A DNA stretch of 64,000 nt from contig URNW01000004.1 in the NCBI GenBank assembly GCA_900549285.1, positions 18,969 through 82,968 of the forward strand, written 5' to 3'. The notes below the pieces were generated by a model. The model saw nothing but the letters and a program-made list of their open reading frames with translations, did no database searches and was not told where the DNA came from. The stretch is from an uncultured Mycoplasmatota bacterium (GTDB lineage: Bacteria; Bacillota_I; Bacilli_A; RF39; UBA660). This document shows, in pieces, positions 33,037-57,523 of the stretch (within the stretch, counting starts at the first letter, position 1; each line of letters begins with the position of its first letter). The position numbers and the translations under genes are program-made.

Positions 33037-33093
33037 AGTAACTCCCCTATAATTTTATTTCTTAAATAAAAAAAATATTATATAATTAAATAG

Positions 33094-33915
33094 GTGATAA
33101 AATTGAACTATTTAATTTATATTATTTTAGGGATTATTCAGGGATTTACTGAACCGATTCCCGTATCTTCTAGTGGGCATATTTTTCTTTTTAAAAATAT
33201 TTTTAATACAGATATGTTTAATGATTTAAATTTTGAAATTGTGGCTAATTTTGGATCTTTTCTAGCTATTTTATTTATATTTAGAAAAGAAGTATGGGAA
33301 CTTTTAACAGCTTTTTTCTCTTATATTTTTAAGAAAGAGACAAGAGAAAAATATAAAAAGAAATTTAGGTACTGTATATATATTATTATTTCTACTATTC
33401 CAATTGGACTTGCTGGATTTTTATTTAAAGATTTTATTGAAGAAAAATTACAAAATATTACTATTTTAGGTTTTGCTTTCTTAATTACAGCTTTTATGCT
33501 TCTATTAGTTAAAAATAAAAATGGGAAAAAAGATGATGATGATATCACTTTAAAAGACGCTCTCATTATTGGTATATTACAAATTATAGCATTATTTCCT
33601 GGTATTAGTAGAAGTGGTACTACTTTAGTTCTTTGTTTACTGGTTGGTATGAGTAAAAATACAGCTTTAAAATATACTTTTATTTTATATTTTCCTATTA
33701 GTTTAGGAACTATGATTTTGGGAGTTAAAGATATTATGGAAGCTGGAAATTTAAGTAGCGTTGCTCTACCTTATTTTAGTGGATTATTAGCAGCATTAGT
33801 AGTTACATATTTTTCTTATCGCTGGCTTAGTAATGTTGTAAAGCGTGGTAATCTTTGGAAATTTAGCATTTATTGTGTATGTTTAGCCATATTTATCTTT
33901 ATTTATTTTAGATAA
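33094..33915 (+). CDS. uppP: undecaprenyl-diphosphate phosphatase
   Basis: 273 aa. QGFTEPIPVSSSGH and PGISRSGTT. Confidence 0.92.
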   Translation: MIKLNYLIYIILGIIQGFTEPIPVSSSGHIFLFKNIFNTDMFNDLNFEIVANFGSFLAILFIFRKEVWELLTAFFSYIFKKETREKYKKKFRYCIYIIISTIPIGLAGFLFKDFIEEKLQNITILGFAFLITAFMLLLVKNKNGKKDDDDITLKDALIIGILQIIALFPGISRSGTTLVLCLLVGMSKNTALKYTFILYFPISLGTMILGVKDIMEAGNLSSVALPYFSGLLAALVVTYFSYRWLSNVVKRGNLWKFSIYCVCLAIFIFIYFR

Positions 33916-34005
33916 AAAGCTTCACTTTATAGTGGAGCTTTTATCTTGTAAGCAAAATGATTTCATTTAAAAATTAGTTTGGCGTATAAAAAAGTGGTGA
34001 ACCAC

Positions 34006-34551
34006 TTAATTTTTAAATAATATAATATTAAATACTAATAAGACTGCTACATTAAAGGCATAACTAAATTGAAAACGTTCACATTCACCTATAGAAACGA
34101 TTAAGTCTGATGCACAAATTATCCATCCTTCTTTACTTTTGGGTTTAAATTCTTTAATACTTGCTTTTTCTTTTGGATTTATAAATGGGAAAATCTTTTT
34201 TATTAAAACATGATGGAACATATGAGTCTTAATGGCTTCTGCCTCTAATTCTGTTACATTAAAATATCTTTTGGCATTGCTAGCTGCTGTAACTGGATGT
34301 CTTAAATATGAATTTTCTGGGCTTTCTTTTCTAGTTCCGTAAAAGAAGTCATGCAAAAGTCCCGCTCTAGACACACTTTTTAAATCTGCTTTAAAATATC
34401 TTCCTAAACGATAACTTAATTTGGCTACTCTTAAAGAGTGCTCGTATTTACTTGTACCATGATGTAAATCTTTTTTTGTTTCTAAAAAATGTTCATTATT
34501 TAATATATCACACACATACTCATCAAACTCGCATTTTAAACGTTTTGTCAT
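34006..34551 (-). CDS. HD-domain phosphohydrolase
   Basis: 181 aa. HSLRVAKLS...AGLLHDFFY. Confidence 0.7.
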   Translation of the reverse strand: MTKRLKCEFDEYVCDILNNEHFLETKKDLHHGTSKYEHSLRVAKLSYRLGRYFKADLKSVSRAGLLHDFFYGTRKESPENSYLRHPVTAASNAKRYFNVTELEAEAIKTHMFHHVLIKKIFPFINPKEKASIKEFKPKSKEGWIICASDLIVSIGECERFQFSYAFNVAVLLVFNIILFKN

Positions 34552-34754
34552 CTTTTCAACTCCTACTTTTTACTTTGCGACTATTATTATTATAGTAAAT
34601 TATACTTCTTTTGTAAAGGATAAATGCTTAAATTTAATTGATAATTGTTCTATACTACTTTATATTTTAGGAAAAATTTATAAGCCAATAATTAATGATT
34701 TAATTATTATCTTTCCTCTAGTCGCATAGTTAATATTAGTTTTATTTACCCTTT

Positions 34755-34774
34755 AAAAAAGTCCTAAAAGGACT
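34755..34774 (-). terminator. candidate intrinsic terminator ~60 nt downstream of the orphan consensus promoter
   Basis: Minus strand reads AAGTCC-TTTTA-GGACTT followed by TTTT. The stem is short. Confidence 0.4.
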
Positions 34775-34823
34775 TATAAATTATGTTATTTACAACCCCC
34801 TAAATTGCTCATAACTATAGTTA

Positions 34824-34852
34824 ATTATAGCATATTTTCTTGTATTTGTCAA
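34824..34852 (-). promoter_or_regulatory. perfect consensus sigma-A promoter (TTGACA-N17-TATAAT with TGn)
   Basis: Minus strand reads TTGACA aatacaagaaaataTGc TATAAT. It lies just after the clpB terminator and ~270 nt upstream of the HD gene. Confidence 0.65.
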
Positions 34853-34864
34853 AAAGTGGACAAA

Positions 34865-34888
34865 TAAAAAAAGAAGCAATTATGCTTC
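34865..34888 (-). terminator. clpB intrinsic terminator
   Basis: Minus strand reads GAAGCA-TAAT-TGCTTC followed by T8. The stop codon lies in the loop. Confidence 0.7.
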
Positions 34889-36988
34889 CTTTAAAGTTAA
34901 ATGATCATCTTTTACATCTACTATAATGTTATCATTATATTTAATTTCATTTTTGATAATTTTATCTGCTAAAAGAGTTTCAATATTATGAGTAACATAT
35001 CTTTTAATTGGTCTTGCACCATAAGCTTCTTCATATGAATGTTCAATAATAAAATCTTTAGCTTCTTTTGTCAATTTTAAATGTAAATTAATATTTTTAA
35101 GCCTTGATTCTGTTTCATGAATGATCTTATCAAGAATACTATAAACAATATCTTTTCCTAAAGATTTGAATATGATAATTTCATCAATACGATTAATAAA
35201 TTCTGGACGGAATGTTCTTTTTAGTGCTTCCATTACTTTTGATTCACTATTTTTATCATTATCAAGAATGTATTCACTTCCTAAATTAGATGTCATAATA
35301 ATAATTGTATTTTTAAAATCAACTAATTTTCCTGTTGAATCTGTTATACGGCCATCATCTAATATTTGTAGTAAAATATTGAATACATCAGGATGAGCTT
35401 TTTCAATTTCATCAAATAACACTATACTATATGGATTTCTTCTAACTGCTTCTGTTAGCTCTCCTCCTTCATCATAACCAACATATCCTGGAGGAGCTCC
35501 AAGTAATCTCGATACATTAAAAGCTTCCATATATTCCGAACAATCTATTCTTACCATATGACGTTCATCATCAAATAATTCATAAGCTAAAGCTTTAGCT
35601 AATTCTGTTTTTCCTACTCCAGTTGGTCCCATAAAGATAAATGAGCCAATTGGACGATTAGGATCCTTAATTCCACTTCTAGCACGAATAATAGCATCAC
35701 TTACAACTTTTACTGCTTCATCTTGACCAATTACTCTTTTCTTTAGATTTGCTTCTAAACTTAATAGTTTTTCTTTTTCACCACTTACTAATTTTTGAAC
35801 TGGAATATTGGTCCATTTAGCAACAATTCTAGCAATATCTTCTTCTGTTACAGTATCACTTAACATTTGAGAATCTATTTTATGGCGTAAACTTTCAAGT
35901 TCTTGTTCTAAAGCTGGGATTGTTCCATGACGTAATCTAGCAGCTGTTTCTAAGTCATAATTATTTTCTGCTGTTTCTAATTTAAAACGAGCTTGATCTA
36001 ATTCTTCTTTTTTCTTATTAATATTATCGTTCAGACTTTTTTCTTCTTCCCATTTTTTTCGCATGGAAGACTCTTCCTCTTTTAATGTTTCTATTTCTTT
36101 TTCTAGTTCTTCCTTACGTTTCTTGGATAATTCATCTTTTTCTTTCTTGATTGCTTCTCTTTCAATTTCTAAACTCATAATTTTACGAGTTAATGTATCT
36201 AGTTCAGTTGGAACAGAAGCCATTTGCATCTTTATGGTAGCACATGCTTCGTCTACTAAATCAATTGCTTTATCTGGTAAAAAACGGTCTGTTATATAGC
36301 GATCACTAAGAGTTGCAGCACTAATTAAAGCATTGTCTTTAATATTGACACTATGGAATAATTCAAATTTTTCTTTTAAACCACGTAAGATTGTAATTGT
36401 GTCTTCTACATTGGGCTCACTTACTTGAATTTTTTGAAGTCTTCTTTCTAGGGCTCCATCTTTTTCAATGTATTTACGATATTCATTTAATGTTGTAGCA
36501 CCAATTAATCTTATCTCACCACGAGCAAGCATTGGTTTAAGCATATTCCCAGCATCCATTGCTCCTTCAGCTCCTGCACCTACAATCATATGAATTTCAT
36601 CTATAAATAAAATGATATCTCCATTAGAATCACTAATTTCTTTTAATACTTTTTTTAGACGCTCTTCAAATTCACCACGATATTTTGCTCCTGCAATTAA
36701 AGCTCCTAAATCTAAAGACCATATCCTTTTGCCTTTTAGAGTACTAGGAACATCTCCTTTCACAATACGAATAGCAAGACCTTCAACTATTGCCGTTTTA
36801 CCAACACCAGGTTCACCAATTAAAACGGGATTATTTTTTGTTTTTCTTGATAAAATACGAATAATACTACGGATTTCTTCATCACGACCAATAACAGGAT
36901 CAACTTTATTAAGTCTCACCGCTTCTGTTATATCACGGCCATATTTTTCTAAAACATTTTCGTTTTCTTCCTGCATATTTGGATACAT
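34880..36988 (-). CDS. clpB: ClpB disaggregase lacking the N-terminal domain
   Basis: 702 aa. It starts directly at [10 protein letters not shown]...[11 protein letters not shown]. Two AAA modules and a long M-domain coiled coil are present, and there is no VGF/IGF ClpP loop. The ~150-aa Clp_N domain of full-length ClpB is absent. Confidence 0.9.
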
Positions 36989-37031
36989 ATTAACACTTCC
37001 TTTCTTTTATATATATGTTATATCACAAAAA

Positions 37032-37058
37032 TTAGCACTTGTCAAGTGCAAGTGCTAA
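37032..37058. promoter_or_regulatory. CIRCE (HrcA operator) inverted repeat upstream of clpB
   Basis: TTAGCACTT-GTCAAGTGC-AAGTGCTAA against the consensus TTAGCACTC-N9-GAGTGCTAA. It lies 44 nt upstream of the clpB ATG. Confidence 0.85.
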
Positions 37059-38002
37059 TTTGTTTTTTTTATTTTAATACTGGATATCCATTTTCTCCTA
37101 ATTTCCAATTTAATAGTTGATATCCACTTAAAATCTCATCTATTTCACTTAAATTTATATTACTTATATTACTATTTAATGTATTAACAAAATTATTAGA
37201 TTTCATTTCACTATTACTCATTCTAGTTAAATTTATATTTGTATTATTGCTTCCACTTATATTATCTAAATAGTATGTATTTGATATATCAAATGTGCTT
37301 CCATCTAATAGGTACGTTATTCCATATGTATCATTATTGGAAACTATAGTGCCTATATTATAAATATTATTTAGATATAAATGATTTGCCCTATTATCAT
37401 CAAAATATACCAATGCTATTCCAGCAACTTTATAGGTGCCACTAGAAGTTACATCTCCAGCATTATAGGAATTTATAATTTTTGATGTACTTTCATTATT
37501 AATTAATCCTACTATACCCGCTGCTTGTTTTATACTTTTAACTTGTCCATTATTATAACTATTTAATATTATTGCTTCTGAATTATGATTATATCCAATT
37601 ATTCCTCCTACTGTTGTTCGGTATTCCGATTCTGATTTATCATTGGATAAAGAGGATACATTTCCAGTATTATAACTTTCATTAATAATAACTCTTCCCC
37701 CTGCTCTTAAAAATCCTAAAACACCTCCTGTTCTTAAACCATTTATTACTTCTCCAGTGTTATAAGATTGATAAATTATAGATTGTCCTTTTATATAGCC
37801 AATTAATCCACCTACACTAATTAAATTATCATATGCTTCTACAACTTCAGTCGATACTTTTCCAATATTATAACAATTATTAATTGTTGTTATGTTTGCT
37901 TCAGTATTATCCCTTCCCAATATGCCTCCAATATTATGACCAAGATTATTTACAATTATTCCTTCATTATAGCTATTTTCTACAGTTAAAATTCCTTCAT
38001 TT

Positions 38003-38009
38003 CCCCCCC
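38003..38009 (-). repeat. poly-G(7) homopolymer at the junction of the two long ORFs
   Basis: Plus-strand C7. With G7 the frame reads GTG GGG GGG AAA TGA. With G6 it reads VGGNEGILTVENSYNEGIIVNNLGHNIGGILGRDN and continues into ORF 37069-37920. Confidence 0.9.
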
Positions 38010-38926
38010 ACTAATCCTCCTGTATTATTTCCGTTACTAATACTTCCGCTATTATGACTACTTTTGATTGTAGTAGTACCCTGAGTCCATCCAATTATAC
38101 CTCCTGTACTATAGGTACTGCTTTTGCTAGTAATATTTGACTCATTATAACAATTTTCTATTGCAATATTGTATCCTCTGCCAACAATTCCTCCCAAATC
38201 TGATCTTATGTTAGTTTGAAAAATACCATCTACGCCTAAATTTTTAATGGTGGCATTCATTGCATATCCAAACAATCCTAAATAGGCTTTATCACTTTCT
38301 TCATTATAAATATATAGATTACTTATCTTTTTATTGTTTCCATCAAATATTCCTGAAAAATATCGTGATTCATCATTGTAATTACTATTTCCAATTGGAA
38401 TAAAACCACTTCCAGTTGTTAATTCTATTTTTAGCTCTTCTATTTTGCCATTGCCATTTATATCTCCATATGAAGTATTTGTATTATCTATATAGCTTTC
38501 CATATTTTGAAAATCTAAATTATTTTCTAGTCTAAAATAATTATCTTCATAAGTTATCCCATTATTTACAGCATTAGATAATGCTACTAAATCTTCTATA
38601 GTTTTTATTTTATAGGGATTTTCTGCTGTTCCTTTTCCTTCCCATGCTACATTAAAATATAAATAGCATTTTGTTTCTTCTAAAGTTACAGGCGTTACAC
38701 TTAATTCTTTAGTATTTACATTATAATTAATCGTTACATCTAATTTTTCATTTCCCTTTTTACAATAACTTTTCTCGCTATTAAATATATAACCAGCATT
38801 AGGAATTGTATCTGTTTTTGTGTATTCATTTCCTTCTTCAACATACATTCCTATTAAATTTTTACTTTGCAAAGTTTCTACACTAATTAATTTGTTTTCT
38901 TTGTTGATATCTCTTAATTTAAGATA

Positions 38927-38936
38927 CCCCCCCCCC
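38927..38936 (-). repeat. poly-G(10) homopolymer between the signal peptide and the mature protein
   Basis: Plus-strand C10, the longest G/C run in the window. Confidence 0.95.
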
Positions 38937-39011
38937 AACTACTATTAATAGTGCTGTTGAGAGGATTATAATCTTCTTTTTCATTTTATTTTCTCCTCTA
39001 TTCTATTATTA

Positions 39012-39040
39012 TTTATATCATATTATTGAAGATTTTTCAA
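39012..39040 (-). promoter_or_regulatory. candidate sigma-A promoter of the GLUG-repeat gene
   Basis: Minus strand reads TTGAAA-N17-TATAAA, 27 nt upstream of ATG 38984, followed by SD AGGAGA. Confidence 0.5.
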
Positions 39041-39091
39041 TATTGCTTTTTATTTTTATATGTAATTAAAATAAGCTCCCTTTACGAAAGC

Positions 39092-39817
39092 TTATTTTAT
39101 AATAGATTCTAAACCTAATTTAATCATATCATTTAATTTTGTTTGTCTTTCTTCTGGACTTAATACAACGTCTGAATATTTAGAATCTGATACTGTCATA
39201 AGGGTAGTTGCTTCTACATTCATAGTATTGGCAACATGACATACACCAAATCCTTCCATTTCTTCTCCAAGAATTTCATATTCGCTTGGAATACGCTCTA
39301 GAACTCTATCATAATCAATATATGGGCCAAAAACATCCATGGTTGTAGTCATACCATAATGTAAATTAATATTTAATTCTCTAGCAGTACTTAAAATAAC
39401 TTTATTTAGATTTTCATTTGCCTCTACTACATTTCCTACATAATTATTATATGTATAAGCAAAATTAGATTCTGAATAAATTTCTTTTGTAAGAATAACA
39501 TCACCAACATCTGCTTTAGGACTTACGGCTCCGCATGTTCCAATTCTAATGATTCTTTTTACATGAAAGAAATGAATTAATTCAAATACATAAATACTAG
39601 CACTAGGCATGCCCATTCCATGAGCCATTACAGTAATTTTTTTCCCTTTATATGTTCCTGTATATCCTGACATATTTCTTATGTTTGTAACTAGTTTCGC
39701 ATTTTCTAGAAAATTATCTGCTATATATTTAGCCCTTAATGGGTCTCCTGGCATTAATACTAATTCTCCAATATCTGCTTTTGCTTCAATATGAATTGGT
39801 TCTTCTCCAATAAACAT
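39092..39817 (-). CDS. deoD: purine nucleoside phosphorylase, DeoD type
   Basis: 241 aa. LMPGDPLRAKYIA, GHGMGMPS and EMEGFG. Confidence 0.9.
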   Translation of the reverse strand: MFIGEEPIHIEAKADIGELVLMPGDPLRAKYIADNFLENAKLVTNIRNMSGYTGTYKGKKITVMAHGMGMPSASIYVFELIHFFHVKRIIRIGTCGAVSPKADVGDVILTKEIYSESNFAYTYNNYVGNVVEANENLNKVILSTARELNINLHYGMTTTMDVFGPYIDYDRVLERIPSEYEILGEEMEGFGVCHVANTMNVEATTLMTVSDSKYSDVVLSPEERQTKLNDMIKLGLESIIK

Positions 39818-39871
39818 AACATCACCTATTATAATATTATCATATCTTGAGAAAAAAATTAATTCCTAAAA

Positions 39872-40390
39872 TTATTTCTTTACACTTCTTTGTAATAACA
39901 ATTTATCTTCTCTTAAACTATCTCTATATAGAGAACTATTTAGTTCTTCTAAATGTTTTTCGAAACATTCTCCTTCATTATTTTTCATTAAATTGTATAG
40001 ATTAGCTTTAATAGATCCGCTTATTTGAAGTTTTGATAATATTTTCCATAAAAACTCTGGATCTTCTTCATAGATTGTTAATAAATCTATTTCATATAAA
40101 TAACTTAAATAAACTAAATATGTGGATAATCGTAAATTATTTTTTTCATAGGGTATAATTAAATCTTCTACTGGTACTATTAAATGAGCATTACGAGTTA
40201 AATATAAATCATTTAATCCTAGACTTTTTAGGGTTAGACTTTTATTTTCTAATTCTTTTATGTCTTGTTCTAATAATAAAATATGTAATAATTTTACTTT
40301 TGTTTTTAGAAGTCTTTTTTCTTCTATAAATTGTTTTAAAGTTATTCCTTCTAACTTTTCTTTACTTGTTATTACATTTTTTTCATTCAT
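39872..40390 (-). CDS. hypothetical protein
   Basis: 172-aa helical ORF with no recognisable motif. Confidence 0.4.
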   Translation of the reverse strand: MNEKNVITSKEKLEGITLKQFIEEKRLLKTKVKLLHILLLEQDIKELENKSLTLKSLGLNDLYLTRNAHLIVPVEDLIIPYEKNNLRLSTYLVYLSYLYEIDLLTIYEEDPEFLWKILSKLQISGSIKANLYNLMKNNEGECFEKHLEELNSSLYRDSLREDKLLLQRSVKK

Positions 40391-40436
40391 TAAAAAAACC
40401 TCTCTTTCTTATAAGAGAAGTTTATGTATTATTTTT

Positions 40437-41669
40437 TTATTTATGCATTAAATCATTTTCTATTTTCATTAAACGATTATATTTAGCTATTCTTTCCCCT
40501 CTTGACATAGATCCTGTTTTAATAAAAGGAATGGATAGCCCAACAGCAAAATCAGCAATAAAGGTGTCTTCTGTTTCTCCACTTCTATGAGATATGATCA
40601 TTTTATAATTGTTCTTACGAGCTAAAATAATAGTTTTAATCATTTCTGTTACTGTTCCAATTTGATTGGCTTTTAAAAGAATGGCATTTCCTGCTTTTAA
40701 ATTAATTCCTTTTTCTAAATATTTAGCATTAGTAACAAAATAATCGTCTCCTACTAGCATAATTTTTTCACCAATAAATTTAGTTAATACTGCTAAGGAT
40801 TCAAAATCATTTTCTTCAAATGGATCTTCAATACTAATAATAGGATATTTATTAACAAGAGTAATATAATACTTAATTAATTCATCACTTGTTAGATCCT
40901 GTTTATCTATTCTATAAGTTTTTGTTTCTTTATTATATAATTCACTAGCTGCTATATCTAAAGCAATAAATACCTCTATTCCTGGTTTATAGCCGCTTTT
41001 TTCTATTGCTTCCATAATTAAATCTAAAGCTAAATTATTATATTCTAAGTTGGGAGCAAATCCACCTTCATCCCCAACACTGGTAGCTAGTCCTTGTTCT
41101 TTTAAAATATCTTTTAAAGTATGAAAGATCTCACTTGCTACTCTTACACGATTAGACATTCCCTTTATAGTTGGAACAATCATAAATTCTTGAATATCTA
41201 AATTATTGTCAGCATGAACACCACCGTTAATTACATTTACCATTGGTAGTGGCATACTTACTCTTCCTCCACTCAAATAAGCATATAATTCTTTATTCTC
41301 ACTTTTAGCAGAAGCTTTAATGCTTGCTAGCGATACAGCAAGAGTAGCATTGGCACCTAAATTACTTTTATTTTCTGTTCCATCTAAATTGATCAACAAT
41401 TTATCAATCATAACTTGTTCTAATTCTTTTCCGATTAAATTATCTTTAATAATTGTATTAATATTATTAACTGCTTTTAGTACACCTTTTTTATGATATC
41501 TTTTATCATTGTCTCTTAATTCTAAAGCTTCTTTTGAACCAGTTGATGCTCCACTTGGTACAGAAGCCGTAGCAGTTATTCCATTATCTAAATAAATTGT
41601 AGCTTCTACAGTAGGATTTCCTCTACTATCTAAAATTTCTCTTCCTACTAAGTCAATAATTTTTGGCAT
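40437..41669 (-). CDS. eno: enolase
   Basis: GREILDSRGNPTVE, SHRSGETED. I prefer ATG 41669 (SD AGGTGA) over the track GTG at 41678, which lies inside the SD. Confidence 0.95.
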   Translation of the reverse strand: MPKIIDLVGREILDSRGNPTVEATIYLDNGITATASVPSGASTGSKEALELRDNDKRYHKKGVLKAVNNINTIIKDNLIGKELEQVMIDKLLINLDGTENKSNLGANATLAVSLASIKASAKSENKELYAYLSGGRVSMPLPMVNVINGGVHADNNLDIQEFMIVPTIKGMSNRVRVASEIFHTLKDILKEQGLATSVGDEGGFAPNLEYNNLALDLIMEAIEKSGYKPGIEVFIALDIAASELYNKETKTYRIDKQDLTSDELIKYYITLVNKYPIISIEDPFEENDFESLAVLTKFIGEKIMLVGDDYFVTNAKYLEKGINLKAGNAILLKANQIGTVTEMIKTIILARKNNYKMIISHRSGETEDTFIADFAVGLSIPFIKTGSMSRGERIAKYNRLMKIENDLMHK

Positions 41670-41783
41670 TTTTATCACCTACTTCCTTATAAGTATACCA
41701 AATTTAAGCCTTTCTTATCAATCTTTTTACATATTCTATTATTATTTTTTGACTAAACTTTACTATTTTGTTACAATGTATTT

Positions 41784-42797
41784 ATGGTGAATAGAATGAA
41801 TGATATCAATTATATAAAAATTAGTATTCCAAATTTACTTCATAATATTAAGACTTTTAAAAATGATTATTCTTATTGTATTATGGATGTTAGTAATAAT
41901 GCTTTTTTCCATGGTATGTATTTAATTAAATATTTAACTCATGAAATTGATTATTTATATGTTTCTCATTTCTATGATTTGCAACTTATTCGTAAATATA
42001 ATCAATCTATACCAGTTATTTATGGTGGAGATATTACTTTAGATAATATTTTTGATTTAATTATCCATAATGCTATTGTTGTTATTAGAGACTTGCAATT
42101 ATTAAAACAAATTAAAGAGTTAAATATCAAAGATTCTTTATCTTTTCTTTTTGAGATTGATCCTAGTGGTATATATGGGATTGATAATAAAGAATGTATT
42201 TTAGATTATTTAGAGTGGAATCATCCATCTTTTAATCTATTAGGTATTATTGCTCGAATTAAAGAAGAAGATGAAAAATTTCTATCCATTATAAAGCCTC
42301 TTTCTAATTTGAAACTAGTTATTTTAAATCATGAGGGAAATAAAAAGAGATTTAATCATTCCAATGCTATTAGGCTTGATCAATCTATTTATGGTATTAA
42401 TATGTATCCAAAAAGGATATTAAAAAGAAATATTCCTGTTTATCAACAAGCTTTTACCTTATGTTCTAAAGTTTCAACCATAAAAAAAATAAGTCATCAT
42501 AAAAAAATAAAATTTATTGCGATTATTCCATTTGGATATGATCACGGAATGAGTAATCATATTAAATATATTTATATAGAAAATGCTTTGTATCCTGTTT
42601 TTCATATTACAAATGAATTTACAGAAATTTTGGTAGATGAATCTATCGAAAAAGATATGAATGTTGAAATTACTTCTTCTAATAATCCTTTAGAAAATTA
42701 TTTTCCATCACAAACTTTAAATTATTTTGCTTTATTTCATTTAAATATTCCCATAGTTTTTGATGATTATATTTTAGAAAAAACGTTAATTTATTAA
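41784..42797 (+). CDS. alanine-racemase-fold protein lacking the catalytic lysine (probable pseudoenzyme or new activity)
   Basis: 337 aa. CIMDVSNNAFFHG aligns to the Alr motif avVKANAYGHG with K replaced by S. IIPFGYDHG corresponds to iPiGYADG. The SYG tyrosine region is not recognisable. Confidence 0.45.
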   Translation: MVNRMNDINYIKISIPNLLHNIKTFKNDYSYCIMDVSNNAFFHGMYLIKYLTHEIDYLYVSHFYDLQLIRKYNQSIPVIYGGDITLDNIFDLIIHNAIVVIRDLQLLKQIKELNIKDSLSFLFEIDPSGIYGIDNKECILDYLEWNHPSFNLLGIIARIKEEDEKFLSIIKPLSNLKLVILNHEGNKKRFNHSNAIRLDQSIYGINMYPKRILKRNIPVYQQAFTLCSKVSTIKKISHHKKIKFIAIIPFGYDHGMSNHIKYIYIENALYPVFHITNEFTEILVDESIEKDMNVEITSSNNPLENYFPSQTLNYFALFHLNIPIVFDDYILEKTLIY

Positions 42798-42814
42798 AAA
42801 AGATGTCAAAAGTT

Positions 42815-42843
42815 ATTGACATCTTTCTTTATTAATGATATAT
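42815..42843 (+). promoter_or_regulatory. tRNA operon promoter
   Basis: TTGACA-N17-TATTAT with TGn upstream of the -10 box, 21 nt before tRNA-Val. The -35 box lies within the hairpin GATGTCAA...TTGACATC that follows the previous gene. Confidence 0.6.
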
Positions 42844-42864
42844 TAAATTACGTCAATGGCGAAT

Positions 42865-42941
42865 GGGCGCTTAGCTCAGTTGGTTAGAGCACCTGCCTTA
42901 CAAGCAGGGGGTCATAGGTTCGAGTCCTATAGCGCCCACCA
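42865..42941 (+). tRNA. tRNA-Val (anticodon TAC), CCA encoded
   Basis: Cloverleaf readable by eye. Acceptor GGGCGCT/AGCGCCC, anticodon loop CTTACAA, T-loop GGTTCGAGTCC. Confidence 0.9.
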
Positions 42942-42953
42942 TTTTATTTTTTT

Positions 42954-43029
42954 GCCGACATAGCGTAACTGGCAGCGCAACTGACTTGTAATCAGTAGGT
43001 TGGGGGTTCGACTCCCTCTGTCGGCACCA
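42954..43029 (+). tRNA. tRNA-Thr (anticodon TGT), CCA encoded
   Basis: Acceptor GCCGACA/TGTCGGC. The anticodon arm ACTGA-CTTGTAA-TCAGT matches Bacillus tRNA-Thr(UGU). Confidence 0.9.
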
Positions 43030-43038
43030 TTAAATTAT

Positions 43039-43122
43039 GGGGAGATAGCGAAGTGGTCAAACGCGGCAGACTGTAAATCTGTTCCTTCGGGTTCCATGGT
43101 TCAAATCCATGTCTCCCCACCA
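43039..43122 (+). tRNA. tRNA-Tyr (anticodon GTA), long variable arm, CCA encoded
   Basis: Acceptor GGGGAGA/TCTCCCC, anticodon loop CTGTAAA, variable arm TCCTTCGGG. Confidence 0.9.
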
Positions 43123-43131
43123 CTTAATTAT

Positions 43132-43207
43132 TGCCTCGTAGCCAAGTGGTAAGGCATCAGACTTTGACTCTGACATTCCGCTGGTTCGAACCCAGCCGAG
43201 GCAGCCA
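43132..43207 (+). tRNA. tRNA-Gln (anticodon TTG), CCA encoded
   Basis: Acceptor TGCCTCG/CGAGGCA, anticodon loop CTTTGAC. Confidence 0.9.
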
Positions 43208-43212
43208 TACTT

Positions 43213-43288
43213 GGTTCGCTAGCTCAGTAGGTAGAGCATTTGACTTTTAATCAAAGGGTCCCGGGTTCGAATCCCGGGCGAGCCACCA
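43213..43288 (+). tRNA. tRNA-Lys (anticodon TTT), CCA encoded
   Basis: Acceptor GGTTCGC/GCGAGCC, anticodon loop CTTTTAA. Confidence 0.9.
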
Positions 43289-43302
43289 TTTTAGTTTATA
43301 AA

Positions 43303-43324
43303 AGTCCTATTTTTAGGGCTTTTT
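43303..43324 (+). terminator. tRNA operon terminator
   Basis: AGTCCTA-TTTT-TAGGGCT followed by TTTT. Confidence 0.6.
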
Positions 43325-43350
43325 ATTATTTTATAATTATTGGCAAATAA

Positions 43351-43381
43351 AAAGTATGCTAGCATAAGCTAGCATATTTTT
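43351..43381. terminator. bidirectional hairpin terminator
   Basis: ATGCTAGC-ATAA-GCTAGCAT flanked by an A run and a T run. It serves the convergent gene 43395-44624. Confidence 0.65.
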
Positions 43382-43394
43382 TATAAAATGTATT

Positions 43395-44624
43395 TTAAAT
43401 TTTACTTTGGTATATACTTTTAATGGCATTTACTACAGCAATTTTACCATAATTATACGTTACTCCTCCTTGTTGATAAGCGATAAATGGCACTCTCAGA
43501 GGTCCATCACAAGATAATTCTATACTAGATCCTTGAGTAAATGAACCACTTGCCATAATAATTTCATCCTCATATCCTGGCATTGGGGATGGTATTGGTA
43601 AAACTTTAGAGTCTATTGGAGAATACTTTTGAATTTCTTGAACGTATTTTATTAGTAAATCTCTATCTTTAAAAGTGATTGCTTCTACTATATCGGCTCT
43701 ATTTTCATTATATCTTGGTGATACTTCAAAGCCTAATTTTTCTAGTAGATAAGAAGTTAAAACACTGGTTTTAAGACTAGATGCTACTACACTAGGGGCA
43801 AAATATAATCCCTGTAAAATACTTTTATTTGCTCCTAGACTTGGTCCTACATCAATTCCCTCTCCTGGTAAATTCAATCTTTCAGCACATAAATTAATTA
43901 GTTTCTCATCTCCACAAATATAGGCACCATTAGATGCTAATGATCCTCCTAAATTCTTAATTAAAGACCCTACTATAATATTTGCTCCTACTTCTAGAGG
44001 AGATGTTTTTTCTACCATCTCACAATAACAGTTATCAATCATAATGATTACATTTGAATCAATTTTTCGTATCTCTTTTATCACTTCTTCAATCTCTTTT
44101 ATTAAAATACTTTTTCGTGTGGAATATCCCCTGCTTCTTTGTATTTCAATTACTTTTATTTTTTTCTCTTTTATCTTTTTTATAATACTGGGAATATCAA
44201 AATGATTGTCTATTAAATCTATTTGTTCATAGTTAATTTTAAAACTTTTTAGTGAACTAGGATTTTCTTTAATCCCAATTACTTCATGTAAGGTATCATA
44301 TGGTAACCCTGTAATAGAAAGCATGGTATCACCAGGACGTAGTAAAGCAAAAAGGGTTGTTGATAAAGCATGAGAACCACTAATAAACTGATTCCTTACT
44401 AAAGCTTTTTCTCCTTTTAGAACATGGGCGAAAACTCGTTCAATAGCATCTCTTCCAATATCATTATAACCATATCCTGTTGTCATATTAAAATGAGCTT
44501 CATTTATATTTTCTTTGTGAAAAGCTTCTAAAACTAACTTGCTAAAATAAGTTTCCGTTTCATCTATTTCATTATAAATCTCTTTACAATCTTTTTCTGC
44601 CTCTTTTAGTAATTCTTCTATCAT
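43395..44624 (-). CDS. methionine gamma-lyase family protein (YnbB / aluminium-resistance family)
   Basis: 409 aa. TGYGYNDIGRDAIERVFAHV...FISGSHALS. Confidence 0.7.
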   Translation of the reverse strand: MIEELLKEAEKDCKEIYNEIDETETYFSKLVLEAFHKENINEAHFNMTTGYGYNDIGRDAIERVFAHVLKGEKALVRNQFISGSHALSTTLFALLRPGDTMLSITGLPYDTLHEVIGIKENPSSLKSFKINYEQIDLIDNHFDIPSIIKKIKEKKIKVIEIQRSRGYSTRKSILIKEIEEVIKEIRKIDSNVIIMIDNCYCEMVEKTSPLEVGANIIVGSLIKNLGGSLASNGAYICGDEKLINLCAERLNLPGEGIDVGPSLGANKSILQGLYFAPSVVASSLKTSVLTSYLLEKLGFEVSPRYNENRADIVEAITFKDRDLLIKYVQEIQKYSPIDSKVLPIPSPMPGYEDEIIMASGSFTQGSSIELSCDGPLRVPFIAYQQGGVTYNYGKIAVVNAIKSIYQSKI

Positions 44625-44658
44625 ATTTTTAACCTCCTTTAAATATTTTTATAAAGAA

Positions 44659-45372
44659 CTAATTTCTATTTCCTCCATCCACTCTAATCACAGAACTATT
44701 AATATAACTGGCATCATCACTGGCAAGAAAAAAAACAACCTTAGCTATTTCCTCAGGATTCGCAAAACGATTTAATAATATTTTTTTGGTTTCTTCTAAG
44801 CGATATTCTTCATCTAATTCTTTATTCATTTCAGTATTTATCCATCCTGGAGCTACTGTATTTACTCTTATATTAGGAGCATATTCTATTGCTAAATTTT
44901 TTGTTAATGATATTACTCCTGCTTTTGATGCATCATAATCTAAACCATAAGGATAATATGTATCTATCCCATTCGTTGAAGAAATATTAATGATACTTCC
45001 TTTTTTCATAATTTTATGACCATATTTGCAAACTAAAAAAGTTCCTATTAAATTTACATCTAAAATCTTTTGAAATGTTTCTTTATTCTTAGCATCTACT
45101 TCACTATCTAAAGATATTCCTGCATTATTAATTATAATATCAATATGTCCCTGTTCCTTTTTTATTTTTTCAATCATTTCTTCTACTTCAATTTCATTTG
45201 ATACATCACATTTTATTGGAATGGCATTTGAATATTTTGCACATAAACTTTCAGCTTCTTTTTTACTACTATAAAAATTTACATATACAATATCTTTATT
45301 CTCTAAAAAAAGGGTTGCTATAGAAGCTCCTAGTCCTCTTGATGATCCTGTTACTAAAACAACTCTATTCAT
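44659..45372 (-). CDS. SDR family oxidoreductase (FabG-like)
   Basis: VLVTGSSRGLG, NNAG and Y...K (YDASKAG). I prefer ATG 45372 (SD AGGTGA) over the track start 45393. Confidence 0.85.
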   Translation of the reverse strand: MNRVVLVTGSSRGLGASIATLFLENKDIVYVNFYSSKKEAESLCAKYSNAIPIKCDVSNEIEVEEMIEKIKKEQGHIDIIINNAGISLDSEVDAKNKETFQKILDVNLIGTFLVCKYGHKIMKKGSIINISSTNGIDTYYPYGLDYDASKAGVISLTKNLAIEYAPNIRVNTVAPGWINTEMNKELDEEYRLEETKKILLNRFANPEEIAKVVFFLASDDASYINSSVIRVDGGNRN

Positions 45373-45376
45373 ATTA

Positions 45377-46615
45377 TCACCTGCTAAGTTCATTATTATA
45401 TACTAAAGTATTGATGATTTCTACTGTTTTCTTTTCGCTTCCTAAATAATATTCTAAATTAATTGATCCCCTTTCCCCTAAATCTAAATAACTAAAAACA
45501 TTTTCTAAATACATGGAATCTCCATGATTTTTATTTTGTTCTTCATAATATCGATTAATTAAATCTCTAGCTTTTATAGCATTTTCATCTGTAAAGTAAT
45601 CTTCTTTATTTAAACCATAATAATCACAAGCAATACCTAAAGCAAACTCTCCTTGATTATAAGAAAACAGACCTAATATTAGACTATCAAATTTATCTAT
45701 ACATGTTCTTAAATAGGCTAAACCAACTTTTATATTACCATCTGGTGTATCTAATAGTTCCTTTGTAATTTCAAATGTTTCATATTCTCCAGTAAATCCT
45801 TCATTATTGTAAATTGGAACCGTCATGGTTTGACCAACAAATAAACTATAAGTGATCTGACATACATTTTCACATACGCCATTTTTTATATTGGGTCTTT
45901 CTTGGGTAATTTGGGCACATGCCAAATCATAAGGGATTCCATATCTAGTACAATATTTAAGAATTGAATCTTTAAAATACATTTCTGTTTCTTCTAACTT
46001 AGTGGTGTTAGTATCTATACGATTACTTTCAGTGCGATCTTTAAAAGCTAGTTTTACGGCGAAGTCTGCTTGATTTTCTATAGTTGGTTCTAATGAAAAT
46101 TCTTTTAAGTTAGCTTTTGGTACTTCTTTTAAGTTCATCTCATAATTTATGTTGGGTAATGTTGCTATTTTATCTGATTTTGATAACTCTTTATTCATCA
46201 TGCCCGCTAACAGAGAAATACTGAGTGAAACACTTAATGTTCCTGCAATAATTGCTTTTGGCATTCTTTTACTTTTGATTCTATTTACATGTTTGGACTT
46301 TTTTATTTCTGTTATGTTTTTTGGTTCTATAAAACGTTTAATTCTATTTAATAACTTAAAAAAGTAGTGATCATAAGAATCTTGTTGCATTAAAAATATT
46401 TTAGTATTATCAATTACTAAAGAAAAATTATTTTCAAAAGCAATTTCCATTACTTTGTCATTATCTATAATATTTTTTATCTTATTTTCAGTTATTTTAG
46501 ATAGAAGTGTTATAATTTCTTTTTCGTTTAGGCTTATGTAATTGATGCGATCATTTTCATATTTATAAGCATAATATCTCCGTCCATTATTATAATCAAT
46601 ATAGAATTTATTCAT
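45377..46615 (-). CDS. membrane-anchored protein with possible lytic-transglycosylase-like C-terminal domain
   Basis: One TM (AIIAGTLSVSLSISLLAGMM). The C-terminal half has CAQITQERP...CQIT...LFSYNQGEF, which is loosely SLT-like. I prefer ATG 46615. Confidence 0.3.
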   Translation of the reverse strand: MNKFYIDYNNGRRYYAYKYENDRINYISLNEKEIITLLSKITENKIKNIIDNDKVMEIAFENNFSLVIDNTKIFLMQQDSYDHYFFKLLNRIKRFIEPKNITEIKKSKHVNRIKSKRMPKAIIAGTLSVSLSISLLAGMMNKELSKSDKIATLPNINYEMNLKEVPKANLKEFSLEPTIENQADFAVKLAFKDRTESNRIDTNTTKLEETEMYFKDSILKYCTRYGIPYDLACAQITQERPNIKNGVCENVCQITYSLFVGQTMTVPIYNNEGFTGEYETFEITKELLDTPDGNIKVGLAYLRTCIDKFDSLILGLFSYNQGEFALGIACDYYGLNKEDYFTDENAIKARDLINRYYEEQNKNHGDSMYLENVFSYLDLGERGSINLEYYLGSEKKTVEIINTLVYNNELSR

Positions 46616-55522: not shown

Positions 55523-56872
55523 TTAAATTTCATATGGTGTTGAGGAAGTGCCATTTCCACTTTTTATTGTTACATCACTAGCTATATTAATGACTGGGCG
55601 AATGCCAAAATTACTATTTACCCAATAGGTTGCATGGTTACCAAAAAGCCATCCAGATACATTTACTGAAAATACACTAGCACTTCCATTATTAAATTGA
55701 TATGGAGATAATGTCCAATAAGATTGCTGGGTATATAGATAATAGTTTTTATTATTTTCTCCTACCATTCCACCAGCTAAAGCAACCTCATCAGCAGTAA
55801 TTAGTCCAATTGGATATTTTAATGATTTATTACCATTATTACTATTAATTATTGTATATAAATCATCTCTTTGATTGCAGACGATATTTGGAGAAGCATT
55901 ACTATTATTTTGTCCATTATATAATTTGATATATGCCCCATAATATGTTATAGTTTTCCCGTTTCCACCACTAGATATTGTTCCTGTATTGTCTTTATAT
56001 GCAGTTCTATCTGCACAGAAGCCTGCTTCTGTATTAATGTACTCTTCATAACCTTTTAAATTTGTCTCATACCAATTATCCAATACTTGCTTAATTGTAC
56101 TATCATTGATATTTGCGTGGGTTTCTTCATAACTACTACTTCCAGTTTTTCCATACATATATCCGACATAAGCATTATCATTATATAAATTGTTAAATGC
56201 ACTCGTCCCTATTTGTGTACTTTCACCTGTTATTGCTGGTCCACTTTCTTCATTTCCTGAATAGATTAGTCTTATACTTCCATCACCATTAATTCTGATG
56301 ATTCGCCAATAGAATCCTGCAAATTTTACCCAGTTATTGGTTACTGCCCCTCTAAAATAGTAACTTTCTCCCCAGTCATCCTCTGTTTTATATACTCCTT
56401 CATTCGTTGTTGCTACCTGACTAAAATCTGGTGTTCCACTTTTAATTTGATTGTCTCTTTTGATGGCATCTGCTAATAATATTTTTTGCTCATCAAAATA
56501 CAAGTAACATTTTGTTCCTTTCGTAGTCAGAGGTCTTATAGTTAAATTTTTAGTATTCATATCATAAGTGATCGTTATATCTTGTTTTTCTTCCCCTATT
56601 TTGCAATAGCTTTCCTCTTCATTTAGAGTATATCCTGAATCTGGTATTTGATCTGTCTTTGTGTAACTACTACCATCTTCAATATATACACCAATTAAAT
56701 TTGAAGCTGATAGTTCATAGTTGATTATTCCATTTACTAGTGGGATAGATTCTGTATTTTTAAACTTTGCTTTAGTAAACGTAAGTATTATGGTACTAAT
56801 TATTGATACTAATACTACAGCTATTACAATATTTCTTTTTAAATGACTTTTCTTTAAAGTTTCTATTTCCAT
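55523..56872 (-). CDS. N-terminally anchored surface protein, paralogous in its first domain to the GLUG-repeat gene
   Basis: 449 aa. NLIGVYIEDGSSYTKTDQIPDSGYTLNEEESYCKIGEEKQDITITYDMNTKNLTIRPL...TKCYLYF matches NLIGMYVEEGNEYTKTDTIPNAGYIFNSEKSYCKKGNEKLDVTINYNVNTKELSVTPV...TKCYLYF of 37997-38938. The C-terminal domain contains FYWRIIRINGDGSIRLIY...GIRPVINI. Confidence 0.6.
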   Translation of the reverse strand: MEIETLKKSHLKRNIVIAVVLVSIISTIILTFTKAKFKNTESIPLVNGIINYELSASNLIGVYIEDGSSYTKTDQIPDSGYTLNEEESYCKIGEEKQDITITYDMNTKNLTIRPLTTKGTKCYLYFDEQKILLADAIKRDNQIKSGTPDFSQVATTNEGVYKTEDDWGESYYFRGAVTNNWVKFAGFYWRIIRINGDGSIRLIYSGNEESGPAITGESTQIGTSAFNNLYNDNAYVGYMYGKTGSSSYEETHANINDSTIKQVLDNWYETNLKGYEEYINTEAGFCADRTAYKDNTGTISSGGNGKTITYYGAYIKLYNGQNNSNASPNIVCNQRDDLYTIINSNNGNKSLKYPIGLITADEVALAGGMVGENNKNYYLYTQQSYWTLSPYQFNNGSASVFSVNVSGWLFGNHATYWVNSNFGIRPVINIASDVTIKSGNGTSSTPYEI

Positions 56873-57067
56873 ATTATTACTCCTAACATGATGCTAGGCT
56901 TCATTTTAAAATACATTAAGATAATCTATCATATATCTATGATAACTTTCCTAGCTTATAGTTAAATTATAAATATAGCTAGATTAAAAGTCAAGAAAAA
57001 TATCGGCATATTAGCCAATAAATATTTTTTCTAATTGATAAATGCGACAATTAAAGCGGTGAATAAT

Positions 57068-57523
57068 ATGAATTATAGTAACAAATTAAGATCAATTAGA
57101 ACCTCTGAACTTTTAAGTCAAGAACAGGTTGCAGAATATTTAAATATAAATAGAAGTACATATAAAGAATATGAATTACAAAATAGTATCATTCCTTCTA
57201 AATATCTAGGAAAACTAAGTAATATTTTAAATGTATCAATTGACTATATATTTAATTTTACTGAAATCAAAAGATATCATGATAATAGCAATAATATCAA
57301 CAAAGAAAAGTCTGGCTCAAGACTCAAAGAAATTAGAAAGGAAAATAAGCTTACTCAAACTAAACTTGCTACCATACTTAATACTACTCAATCAGTTATT
57401 GCTGATTATGAAAAAGGGAGATATTTAATTGCTACACCTTTTCTTTATACCATATGTAAAAAATATCATATTTCTGCTGATTATCTATTAGGAAAAACAG
57501 ATGAGCCAAAATATTTAAAATAA
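57068..57523 (+). CDS. transcriptional regulator with two tandem XRE-type HTH domains
   Basis: LRSIRTSELLSQEQVAEYLNINRSTYKEYE and LKEIRKENKLTQTKLATILNTTQSVIADYE. I prefer ATG 57068 over the track start 57035. Confidence 0.8.
   Translation: MNYSNKLRSIRTSELLSQEQVAEYLNINRSTYKEYELQNSIIPSKYLGKLSNILNVSIDYIFNFTEIKRYHDNSNNINKEKSGSRLKEIRKENKLTQTKLATILNTTQSVIADYEKGRYLIATPFLYTICKKYHISADYLLGKTDEPKYLK

Follow-up and report, generated by a model that had tools for sequence, protein, structure and literature searches.

Simple sequence repeat (SSR) contingency loci are textbook features of a handful of pathogens. In Mycoplasma, a poly-A tract lies in the promoter spacer of the vlp genes of M. hyorhinis, and vaa of M. 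hominis and p78 of M. fermentans carry one near the 5′ end of the coding sequence. Promoter spacers also carry the switching repeats of H. influenzae hifA/hifB, which are (TA)n, and of N. meningitidis porA and opc, which are poly-G and poly-C, respectively. A poly-G tract in the signal-peptide coding region of Neisseria pilC was reportedly described by Jonsson et al. in 1991. In Campylobacter jejuni, intragenic and intergenic poly-G/C contingency loci are described in two reviews (PMC8355987, PMC8437040). A 2025 review (PMC11868660) lists mycoplasma lipoprotein phase variation and raises as unanswered why genomes with multiple phase-variable loci seem confined to pathogens, and whether this reflects database bias. 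Here we analysed a 64-kb stretch of DNA from an uncultured Mycoplasmatota bacterium (contig URNW01000004.1 of assembly GCA_900549285.1), hereafter the window, to which all unqualified positions refer. It holds a gene for a predicted surface protein with a GLUG beta-helix, the GLUG gene, whose reading frame is broken by two poly-G tracts (tracts 1 and 2). We found that both tracts differ in length between otherwise near-identical genomes, and the gene is probably a phase-variable switch.

The two tracts are the only G/C runs longer than 5 nt in the whole 64 kb by homopolymer count, and both sit within the open reading frame (ORF) of the same 637-codon gene (Table 1). The GC content of the window is 27.2%, and a model of independent, identically distributed bases predicts 6e-4 G/C runs of at least 10 nt and 0.16 of at least 7 nt per 64 kb. 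Three consecutive GGG codons have no second instance in the window, where GGG accounts for 7.8% of the glycine codons, and no further notable tandem repeats were found in the 64 kb. Read on the minus strand, the context of tract 1 is ...ATTAATAGTAGTT-G10-TATCTTAAATTAAG..., and tract 2 follows 927 nt downstream. Tract 1 is in frame with the start codon when it has 9 or 12 G, and tract 2 is in frame with 6 or 9 G. When the tract lengths were varied in silico, a single ORF of 637-639 codons required G9 or G12 at tract 1 together with G6 or G9 at tract 2; all remaining combinations ran into a stop at 21-23 or 328-333 codons. The in-frame product would have the junction peptides ...LLIVVGGGYLK... 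and ...TGGLVGGNEGILTVENSYNEGIIVNNLGHNIGGILGR. The window copy is one G too long at each tract, that is, doubly OFF.

An earlier note on this DNA, made from its letters alone, had pointed out the minus-strand G10 at 38927-38936, had stated that all other G/C runs are 5 nt or shorter apart from a G7 in the same gene, and had judged the G10 unlikely to arise by chance. Direct reading, run counting and the expectation given above agree with each of these statements, and the ORF reading likewise confirms its early stop with 10 G and its 313-codon body in the +1 frame. The claim that 9 or 12 G restores the product stands in part: such a tract does join the leader to the 313-codon ORF, but the 637-aa protein also needs G6 or G9 at tract 2. 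The G7, which had been left uncounted as a lesion, is in fact a second frameshift, reading GGLVGGK-stop.

Independent assemblies of the locus were retrieved by exact look-up of the neighbouring DeoD protein, followed by further look-ups. They comprised scaffold-type (SPAdes-style), MEGAHIT and Logan contigs from different studies (L numbers below denote individual contigs or loci). In their DNA we read tract 1 lengths of 7, 8, 9, 10 and 11 G and tract 2 lengths of 6, 7 and 8 G. The clearest single case is L001, in which G9 instead of G10 at tract 1 is the sole difference from the window over 12.7 kb. Tract 1 was G10 in L002-L015, G9 in L103-L107, G8 in L096, L099 and L100, G11 in L097 and L098, and G7 in L108-L110. 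Tract 2 was G6 in L006-L015, and for both tracts together L002 read G10/G6 and L003 and L004 read G10/G7. One study with one pipeline, SAYO22-1, contained G7, G8, G9 and G11 at tract 1.

The DNA around the tracts was nearly constant. Across ~119 kb aligned there were 21 mismatches, 16 of them in two low-quality contigs. Indels outside the tracts were confined to a patch of three insertions in clpB of contig_16098 (L002/L006) and three gaps in the poor contig L102, and all 18 A/T runs of 7-8 nt in the compared region were invariant. Since the tracts are polymorphic and their flanks constant, the tracts mutate orders of magnitude faster than the surrounding DNA, and we are confident that they are hypermutable. 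Despite the AT-biased composition, no point mutation interrupted a tract in any contig read. The locus as a whole is extremely clonal: window 33092-45817 is 99.96-100% identical to L001-L007 over 12.7 kb, across different studies and cohorts. The three single-base insertions of contig_16098 (L002 and L006 are the same contig) fall within 22 nt of clpB (window 35523-35543), outside homopolymers, and are accompanied by one single-nucleotide polymorphism (SNP); the contig encodes a 703-aa ClpB with a short recoded patch.

We counted the tract states as exact proteins among the cluster members listed. G10/G7 was commonest, with 98 contigs. G8 or G11 combined with G7 was present in 22 contigs, G9/G7 in 12 + 6, G10/G6 in 16 and G7/G7 in 6 + 2. 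The rarest states were G8 or G11 combined with G6 (3 contigs), G10/G8 (2) and G9/G8 (1). A C-terminal fragment that signals tract 2 OFF was encoded by 186 contigs. The states G9/G7 and G7/G7 of the window gene were each present on two SNP backgrounds.

The same leader, comprising promoter, Shine-Dalgarno (SD) sequence, anchor helix and poly-G, heads at least three gene bodies besides the window gene. Gene 2 (P0094 cluster) adjoins recU and has a different C-terminal domain, and it starts with the same promoter and SD, MKRK(V)IILSTALLIVV, poly-G and YLKL. Among its listed members, the ON form of 407-408 aa was found in 51 contigs, the OFF form of 393 aa, starting MGGGYLKL, in 113 and a form of 326 aa in 9. 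Each of two SNP alleles (P0173/P0174 and P0175/P0176) is found in both the ON and the OFF state, and the length changes in gene 2 therefore probably happened repeatedly. Read in DNA, gene 2 has G9 in L111 and L115 and G10 in L114, gene 3 has G10 in L116 and G9 in L124, and gene 4 has G10 in L120 and G11 in L123. Identity between leader-bearing genes is 95-100% over the 40 nt around the tract and 50-80% in the flanks, and the genes diverge 14 nt after the tract (G versus A).

One of these leader-bearing loci has a counterpart in the window. L116 (1-2054) is 99.4% identical to window 56698-55123 and is the same locus as the intact 449-aa paralogue (Table 1). The window form has a tract-free MEIETLKK leader (MEIETLKKSHLKRN...) and adjoins a divergent helix-turn-helix (HTH) gene at 57035-57523; the L116 form has the poly-G leader (G10) with recU upstream. 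The 5′ module appears to have been exchanged between strains at the locus. The leader also accounts for how some contigs end. Contigs L008-L013 and L015 (Logan) start 7 nt before tract 1, and L005 (SPAdes) ends 12 nt after it. Breaks near tract 1 were considered as a sign of within-sample heterogeneity and rejected: the leader is a repeat, and the k=31 break falls where the leader-sharing genes diverge.

In other species, too, members of this gene family carry SSRs at their 5′ ends. Scanning species-representative genomes yielded 80 loci spanning 458 kb, mostly from rabbit-gut 'uncultured Bacilli' metagenome-assembled genomes (MAGs) with many paralogues each, at no more than 47% identity over the best aligned segment. 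These 458 kb contain 16 G runs of at least 8 nt, every one on the sense strand and at the 5′ end of a family gene, and no C run longer than 6 nt. Thirteen of the 16 lie between TTGACT/TTGACA and TATAAT/TATACT. Both boxes are visible in 12 of the 13, where G8 or G9 gives a spacer of 15-17 nt; the thirteenth (L059) starts at a contig end and has the same TTGACT-G8 arrangement as L023. The other three are in the N-terminal coding region (G8 in L016, G10 in L045 and L067), and there adding or removing one G restores a long ORF, such as the 703-aa ORF of L016. A further 19 paralogues carry (TA)6-11 in the promoter spacer, all but one of them (TA)7-11. Such strand- and position-specific recurrence of differing repeats in one family is hard to explain without selection for switchable expression.

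The relatives show additional variants of the arrangement. G8-G9 runs in promoter spacers stand ~50 nt upstream of ATGs in L019, L021, L023, L025, L026, L035, L036, L059, L060 and L064, and the MAG Lapin-027__bin69 has up to five G-run promoters. The (TA)n loci include L017, L018, L022, L030, L033, L037-L040, L051, L052, L056, L057, L076, L083 and L084; here the repeat follows a -35-like box (TTGCAA, TTGAA or TTGACT) and itself completes the -10, (TA)10 giving a 17-nt spacer and (TA)9 one of 15 nt. In MAGs labelled 'Clostridium sp.' or Clostridia, family genes have (AG)8-12 at the 5′ end or just within it (L071, L072, L079 and L095), in L079 within the N-terminal coding region. Six paralogues of the MAG Lapin-012__bin21 have a frame-breaking 41-nt tandem duplication in the signal-anchor coding region (L032 at 2864 and 5137, L053 at 2864, L055 at 35, L063 at 2768 and L069 at 2822). 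Deleting one 41-nt unit restores the full ORF, the L055 paralogue at 2756 has a single unit, and the duplication may act as a duplication/deletion switch. A prepilin-type N-terminal methylation motif, MKNKKGFTLVEL, is present at the starts of L030, L037, L051, L057, L083 and L084, and P0048 and P0065 have PF07963 among their listed domains, a hint that some family members may be displayed on type IV pilus-like fibres.

We consider it probable that the G10 locus is a slipped-strand contingency switch in which the second tract serves as a second lock. Slipped-strand mispairing in replication would add or remove G residues. The ATG at 38984 would be in frame with the body at 9 (or 12) G; at 7, 8, 10 or 11 G, translation would stop after ~21 codons and yield no anchored protein. 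Tract 2, G7 here and in frame as G6, would act as a second, independent frame switch, and the window copy, OFF at both tracts, would need two slippage events to make the full protein. The leader is a module common to several surface-protein genes, and poly-G or (TA)n in the promoter spacers of the wider family would serve the same purpose. We infer that slippage causes the length changes, that a single lineage can reverse them, that the ON form is expressed and surface-exposed, and that switching is selectively favoured as immune, phage or niche bet-hedging. The earlier note had proposed such a contingency locus, and the proposal is now supported by lengths of 7-11 G against near-invariant flanks, by a sister gene in ON and OFF forms and by SSRs in relatives. 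Two other outcomes that it had allowed for did not materialize. G10 was reproduced in many independent assemblies from different assemblers rather than giving way to a uniform G9, and tract 1 was not an invariant G10 with further lesions, as it varies from 7 to 11 G in near-identical genomes.

Several observations count against a switch or bear on it. The full in-frame G9/G6 product is absent from ~15 billion catalogued proteins, though the gene is present on ~170-190 contigs; the same collection also lacks the G12/G7 and G12/G6 products. Tract 1 is in frame in ~11% of contigs and tract 2 in ~10%, where random lengths predict one third. ON is not favoured at the consensus level, and the consensus state in nature is mostly OFF. 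The finding of no ON/ON state among ~180 contigs is what independence of the two tract frequencies predicts (~2 expected). No sample with two tract states was found among the sample lists shown, which are subsets of the samples, and the contig breaks that could pass for such heterogeneity are explained by the repeated leader. Lastly, L125 (a G8/G7 lineage, 2 contigs) has a C-to-T change at window 38365 that turns CGA into TGA within the GLUG gene. L125 has no other substitution in 3.5 kb, and the nonsense mutation is compatible with relaxed constraint.

The main rival to a contingency switch is a decaying pseudogene, a gene that was switched off and is no longer selected in this species and whose tracts slip neutrally. 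The double frameshift, the failure to find a full ON product, in-frame fractions of ~10% per tract instead of one third, and the L125 nonsense mutation all speak for this explanation, which we nevertheless hold to be unlikely. The modal allele has no lesion in promoter, SD, leader or ORF halves beyond the two tracts, and the tracts are uninterrupted by point mutation in the contigs read. Moreover, across four genes no part of the leader is as well conserved as the tract region, the single-tract sister genes are ON in ~30% of contigs, and SSRs recur at the 5′ ends of family genes in other species. The absence of decay has little power either way, because strain divergence is below 1e-4.

Recoding is a second rival, compatible with a switch: the G10/G7 gene would be functional as it is, and RNA-polymerase slippage or ribosomal +1 frameshifting would restore the frame in some molecules. 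Long homopolymers are known transcriptional slippage sites, G10/G7 is the modal state and the same one-base correction is needed at both tracts. We find recoding very improbable all the same. The out-of-frame arrangement is not conserved, with in-frame and out-of-frame alleles of each tract present in near-identical genomes, and every molecule would require two independent corrections. In addition, there is no stimulatory stop or rare codon beside the run, which is followed by GUA UCU UAA, and variation at the DNA level already accounts for the pattern. A sequencing or assembly error in a truly intact G9/G6 gene is the least credible explanation: homopolymers are prone to error and each tract has exactly one surplus G, but G10/G7 recurs across many studies and three kinds of assembler, in 98 contigs, and G9/G6 was never seen, the short tract 2 (6-8 nt) varies too, A/T runs of 7-8 nt are constant across ~119 kb aligned, and differing states (G7, G8, G9 and G11) coexist inside the single study and pipeline of SAYO22-1.

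Beyond the contingency switch at this one gene, a broader proposal can be made, on which we are evenly divided. Uncultured, Mycoplasma-related commensal Bacilli in mammalian guts might run a multi-locus SSR 'phasome' on transmembrane (TM)-anchored beta-helix surface proteins. In the human-gut species, a portable leader cassette would be recombined onto different bodies and could replace a regulator-linked, tract-free leader at the same locus, one gene would have a two-tract lock, and sister lineages would have independently recruited poly-G or (TA)n in promoter spacers, (AG)n and the 41-nt duplication.

To characterize the product, we examined the repaired 637-aa protein. Its sole Pfam match is GLUG (PF07581; 37.9 bits against a cut-off of 20.5, E 1.7e-9), and an NCBIfam search gave no match. 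Homologues number in the hundreds; the best are full-length proteins of 660-690 aa with 40-50% identity that align through both tracts. NNTGGLVG around tract 2 is a conserved motif among them, and GGG at the position of tract 1 is found in no homologue in the alignment. An AlphaFold model built on this alignment is confident (predicted local distance difference test (pLDDT) score 87, predicted template modelling (pTM) score 0.82) and has a continuous helix at residues 2-25, followed by a small beta domain (44-112) and a long beta-helix (209-588). A PDB profile search and Foldseek (E 4e-6 to 7e-4) both match the GLUG beta-helix of IgA1 proteases and B. ovatus BACOVA_03286. None of Pfam, NCBIfam, the PDB profile search and Foldseek matched a protease domain, the PDB matches being limited to the beta-helix part.

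Two other identities were discarded. An IgA1 protease (M26 zinc metalloprotease) was ruled out, as there is no catalytic domain and Pfam returns GLUG only. A bacterial lipoprotein was ruled out as well: the repaired protein has no Cys before residue 74 and therefore no lipobox in the signal region, and helix 2-25 is predicted to be continuous. The earlier note's cleaved signal peptide thus gives way to an N-terminus that looks like an uncleaved membrane-anchor helix. Tract 1 encodes GGG within this helix or at its end, a position that is not an established cleavage site. The most fitting description of the product is a predicted N-terminally membrane-anchored GLUG beta-helix surface protein, possibly an adhesin.

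The features of the locus are collected in Table 1. The earlier note had placed a promoter and an SD upstream of the gene. The SD and both promoter hexamers are present and conserved in three other genes, but a consensus promoter scan of the window does not list TTGAAA-N17-TATAAA. That scan is uninformative in this AT-rich DNA, where it lists as many sites (18) as chance predicts (18.1). The best available support for the putative promoter is its conservation across genes: both hexamers and the 17-nt spacing are kept in three other leader-bearing genes (L111/L114/L115 and L116), with divergent spacer sequence. At the 3′ end, a terminator-like hairpin follows the stop codon (2 such sites in the scan, 0.2 expected), and the GLUG gene is therefore a separate transcription unit between deoD and clpB.

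Table 1. Positions of the tracts, the GLUG gene with its signals, and the tract-free paralogue in the 64-kb window.
Feature	Position	Strand	Basis or remarks
Tract 1, poly-G, G10 (OFF)	38927..38936	minus (plus-strand C10)	direct sequence reading and run counting
Tract 2, poly-G, G7 (OFF)	38003..38009	minus	direct reading and run counting; inside conserved NNTGGLVGG motif
637-codon gene	ATG 38984 to stop 37069	minus	frame broken by both tracts
Putative sigma-70-type promoter	39012..39040 (TTGAAA 39040-39035, 17-nt spacer, TATAAA 39017-39012)	minus	direct reading and cross-gene conservation
Shine-Dalgarno GAGGAGA	38998-38992, 7 nt before ATG	minus	conserved as GAGGAG in L111, L114-L116
Start codon ATG	38984-38982	minus	
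Leader ORF as assembled, 21 codons, MKKKIIILSTALLIVVGGGVS-stop	38919..38984	minus	encodes N-terminal membrane-anchor helix; early end from extra G
Body part 1, 313-codon ORF, +1 frame	37997..38938	minus	small beta domain and first third of GLUG beta-helix; closes with GGLVGGK-stop at tract 2
Body part 2, third frame	37069..38002	minus	remaining beta-helix and C-terminal domain; mechanical ORF 37069-37920, 283 aa
Intrinsic-terminator-like hairpin and T run	37029..37061	minus	immediately after stop codon
Intact 449-aa paralogue	55523-56872	minus	shares only N-terminal ~120-aa domain with GLUG gene; tract-free leader

The neighbouring genes are long intact ORFs under translation table 11. A code that reads TGA as Trp was considered as an explanation and set aside: the neighbours need no such code, and the frames would stay apart with TGA as a sense codon. 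Five tRNA genes are clustered at 42865-43285 (+), and Rfam finds only these five tRNAs. The contigs with this locus come from human-gut metagenomes, and the neighbouring DeoD has a 90% cluster-mate annotated 'Mycoplasma sp. CAG:776'. This points to a Mycoplasma-related uncultured gut member of Bacilli as the host; background on such uncultured gut orders is given in PMC10868615.

Full-text searches found no literature linking RF39-type Bacilli or GLUG proteins with phase variation. The mechanism is classical. So far as could be checked, novelty lies in lineage, gene family, portable leader and two-tract lock, and in the readability of the system from public metagenomes. An uncultured commensal gut lineage shows the same design as the pathogens on several genes and in several species, as seen in public metagenome assemblies, and provides a candidate family of variable surface antigens or adhesins for organisms not yet grown. 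There is also a practical warning, in that MAG 'pseudogenes' split at G runs may be switched-off genes rather than products of decay or assembly error. If the phasome proposal is true, pathogen-style stochastic surface variation would be a general strategy of a widespread commensal clade that can be read from metagenomes.

In conclusion, we compared the locus with the described systems, beginning with the product. The window protein shares a beta-helix match with the GLUG domain of streptococcal and Gemella IgA1 proteases and with BACOVA_03286 (PDB 6xja, 7uvk and 3n6z). In contrast to the proteases, it has no protease domain and no LPXTG motif, and its N-terminal domain is different. The resemblance points to a 'surface beta-helix', not to an 'IgA protease'.

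The promoter-spacer switches of hif, porA and opc resemble the relatives and not the window gene. In these relatives, G8-G9 or (TA)7-11 lies between -35 and -10 and gives spacers of 15-17 nt. Unlike the hif, porA and opc hosts, they are uncultured Bacilli and Clostridia represented by MAGs from rabbit and other guts. The Campylobacter loci share a low-GC genome, rare G/C homopolymers of ~8-11 nt concentrated in surface-structure genes, and ON/OFF control by frameshift. They belong to another phylum and other genes, and their switching rates are measured, whereas here the evidence is polymorphism between samples. Mycoplasma is a related lineage (Bacilli/Mollicutes), and its surface proteins, like those studied here, come from multigene families in which a homopolymer lies early in the ORF or in the promoter spacer. 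The earlier note's analogy with Mycoplasma homopolymer switches is phylogenetically close, given the Mycoplasma-related host, rather than remote. Compared with Vlp and Vaa, the tracts here are poly-G rather than poly-A, the product is a predicted TM-anchored beta-helix protein with no lipobox, and the hosts are uncultured gut commensals using genetic code 11.

Neisseria pilC, too, matches the window gene in layout. In both, a G run lies in the N-terminal export-signal region and its length sets the frame of the mature part relative to the start codon. The window gene differs from pilC in its host, a Gram-positive-derived, Mycoplasma-related gut commensal, in its GLUG beta-helix, in the second tract within the body and in a leader that is shared among genes.

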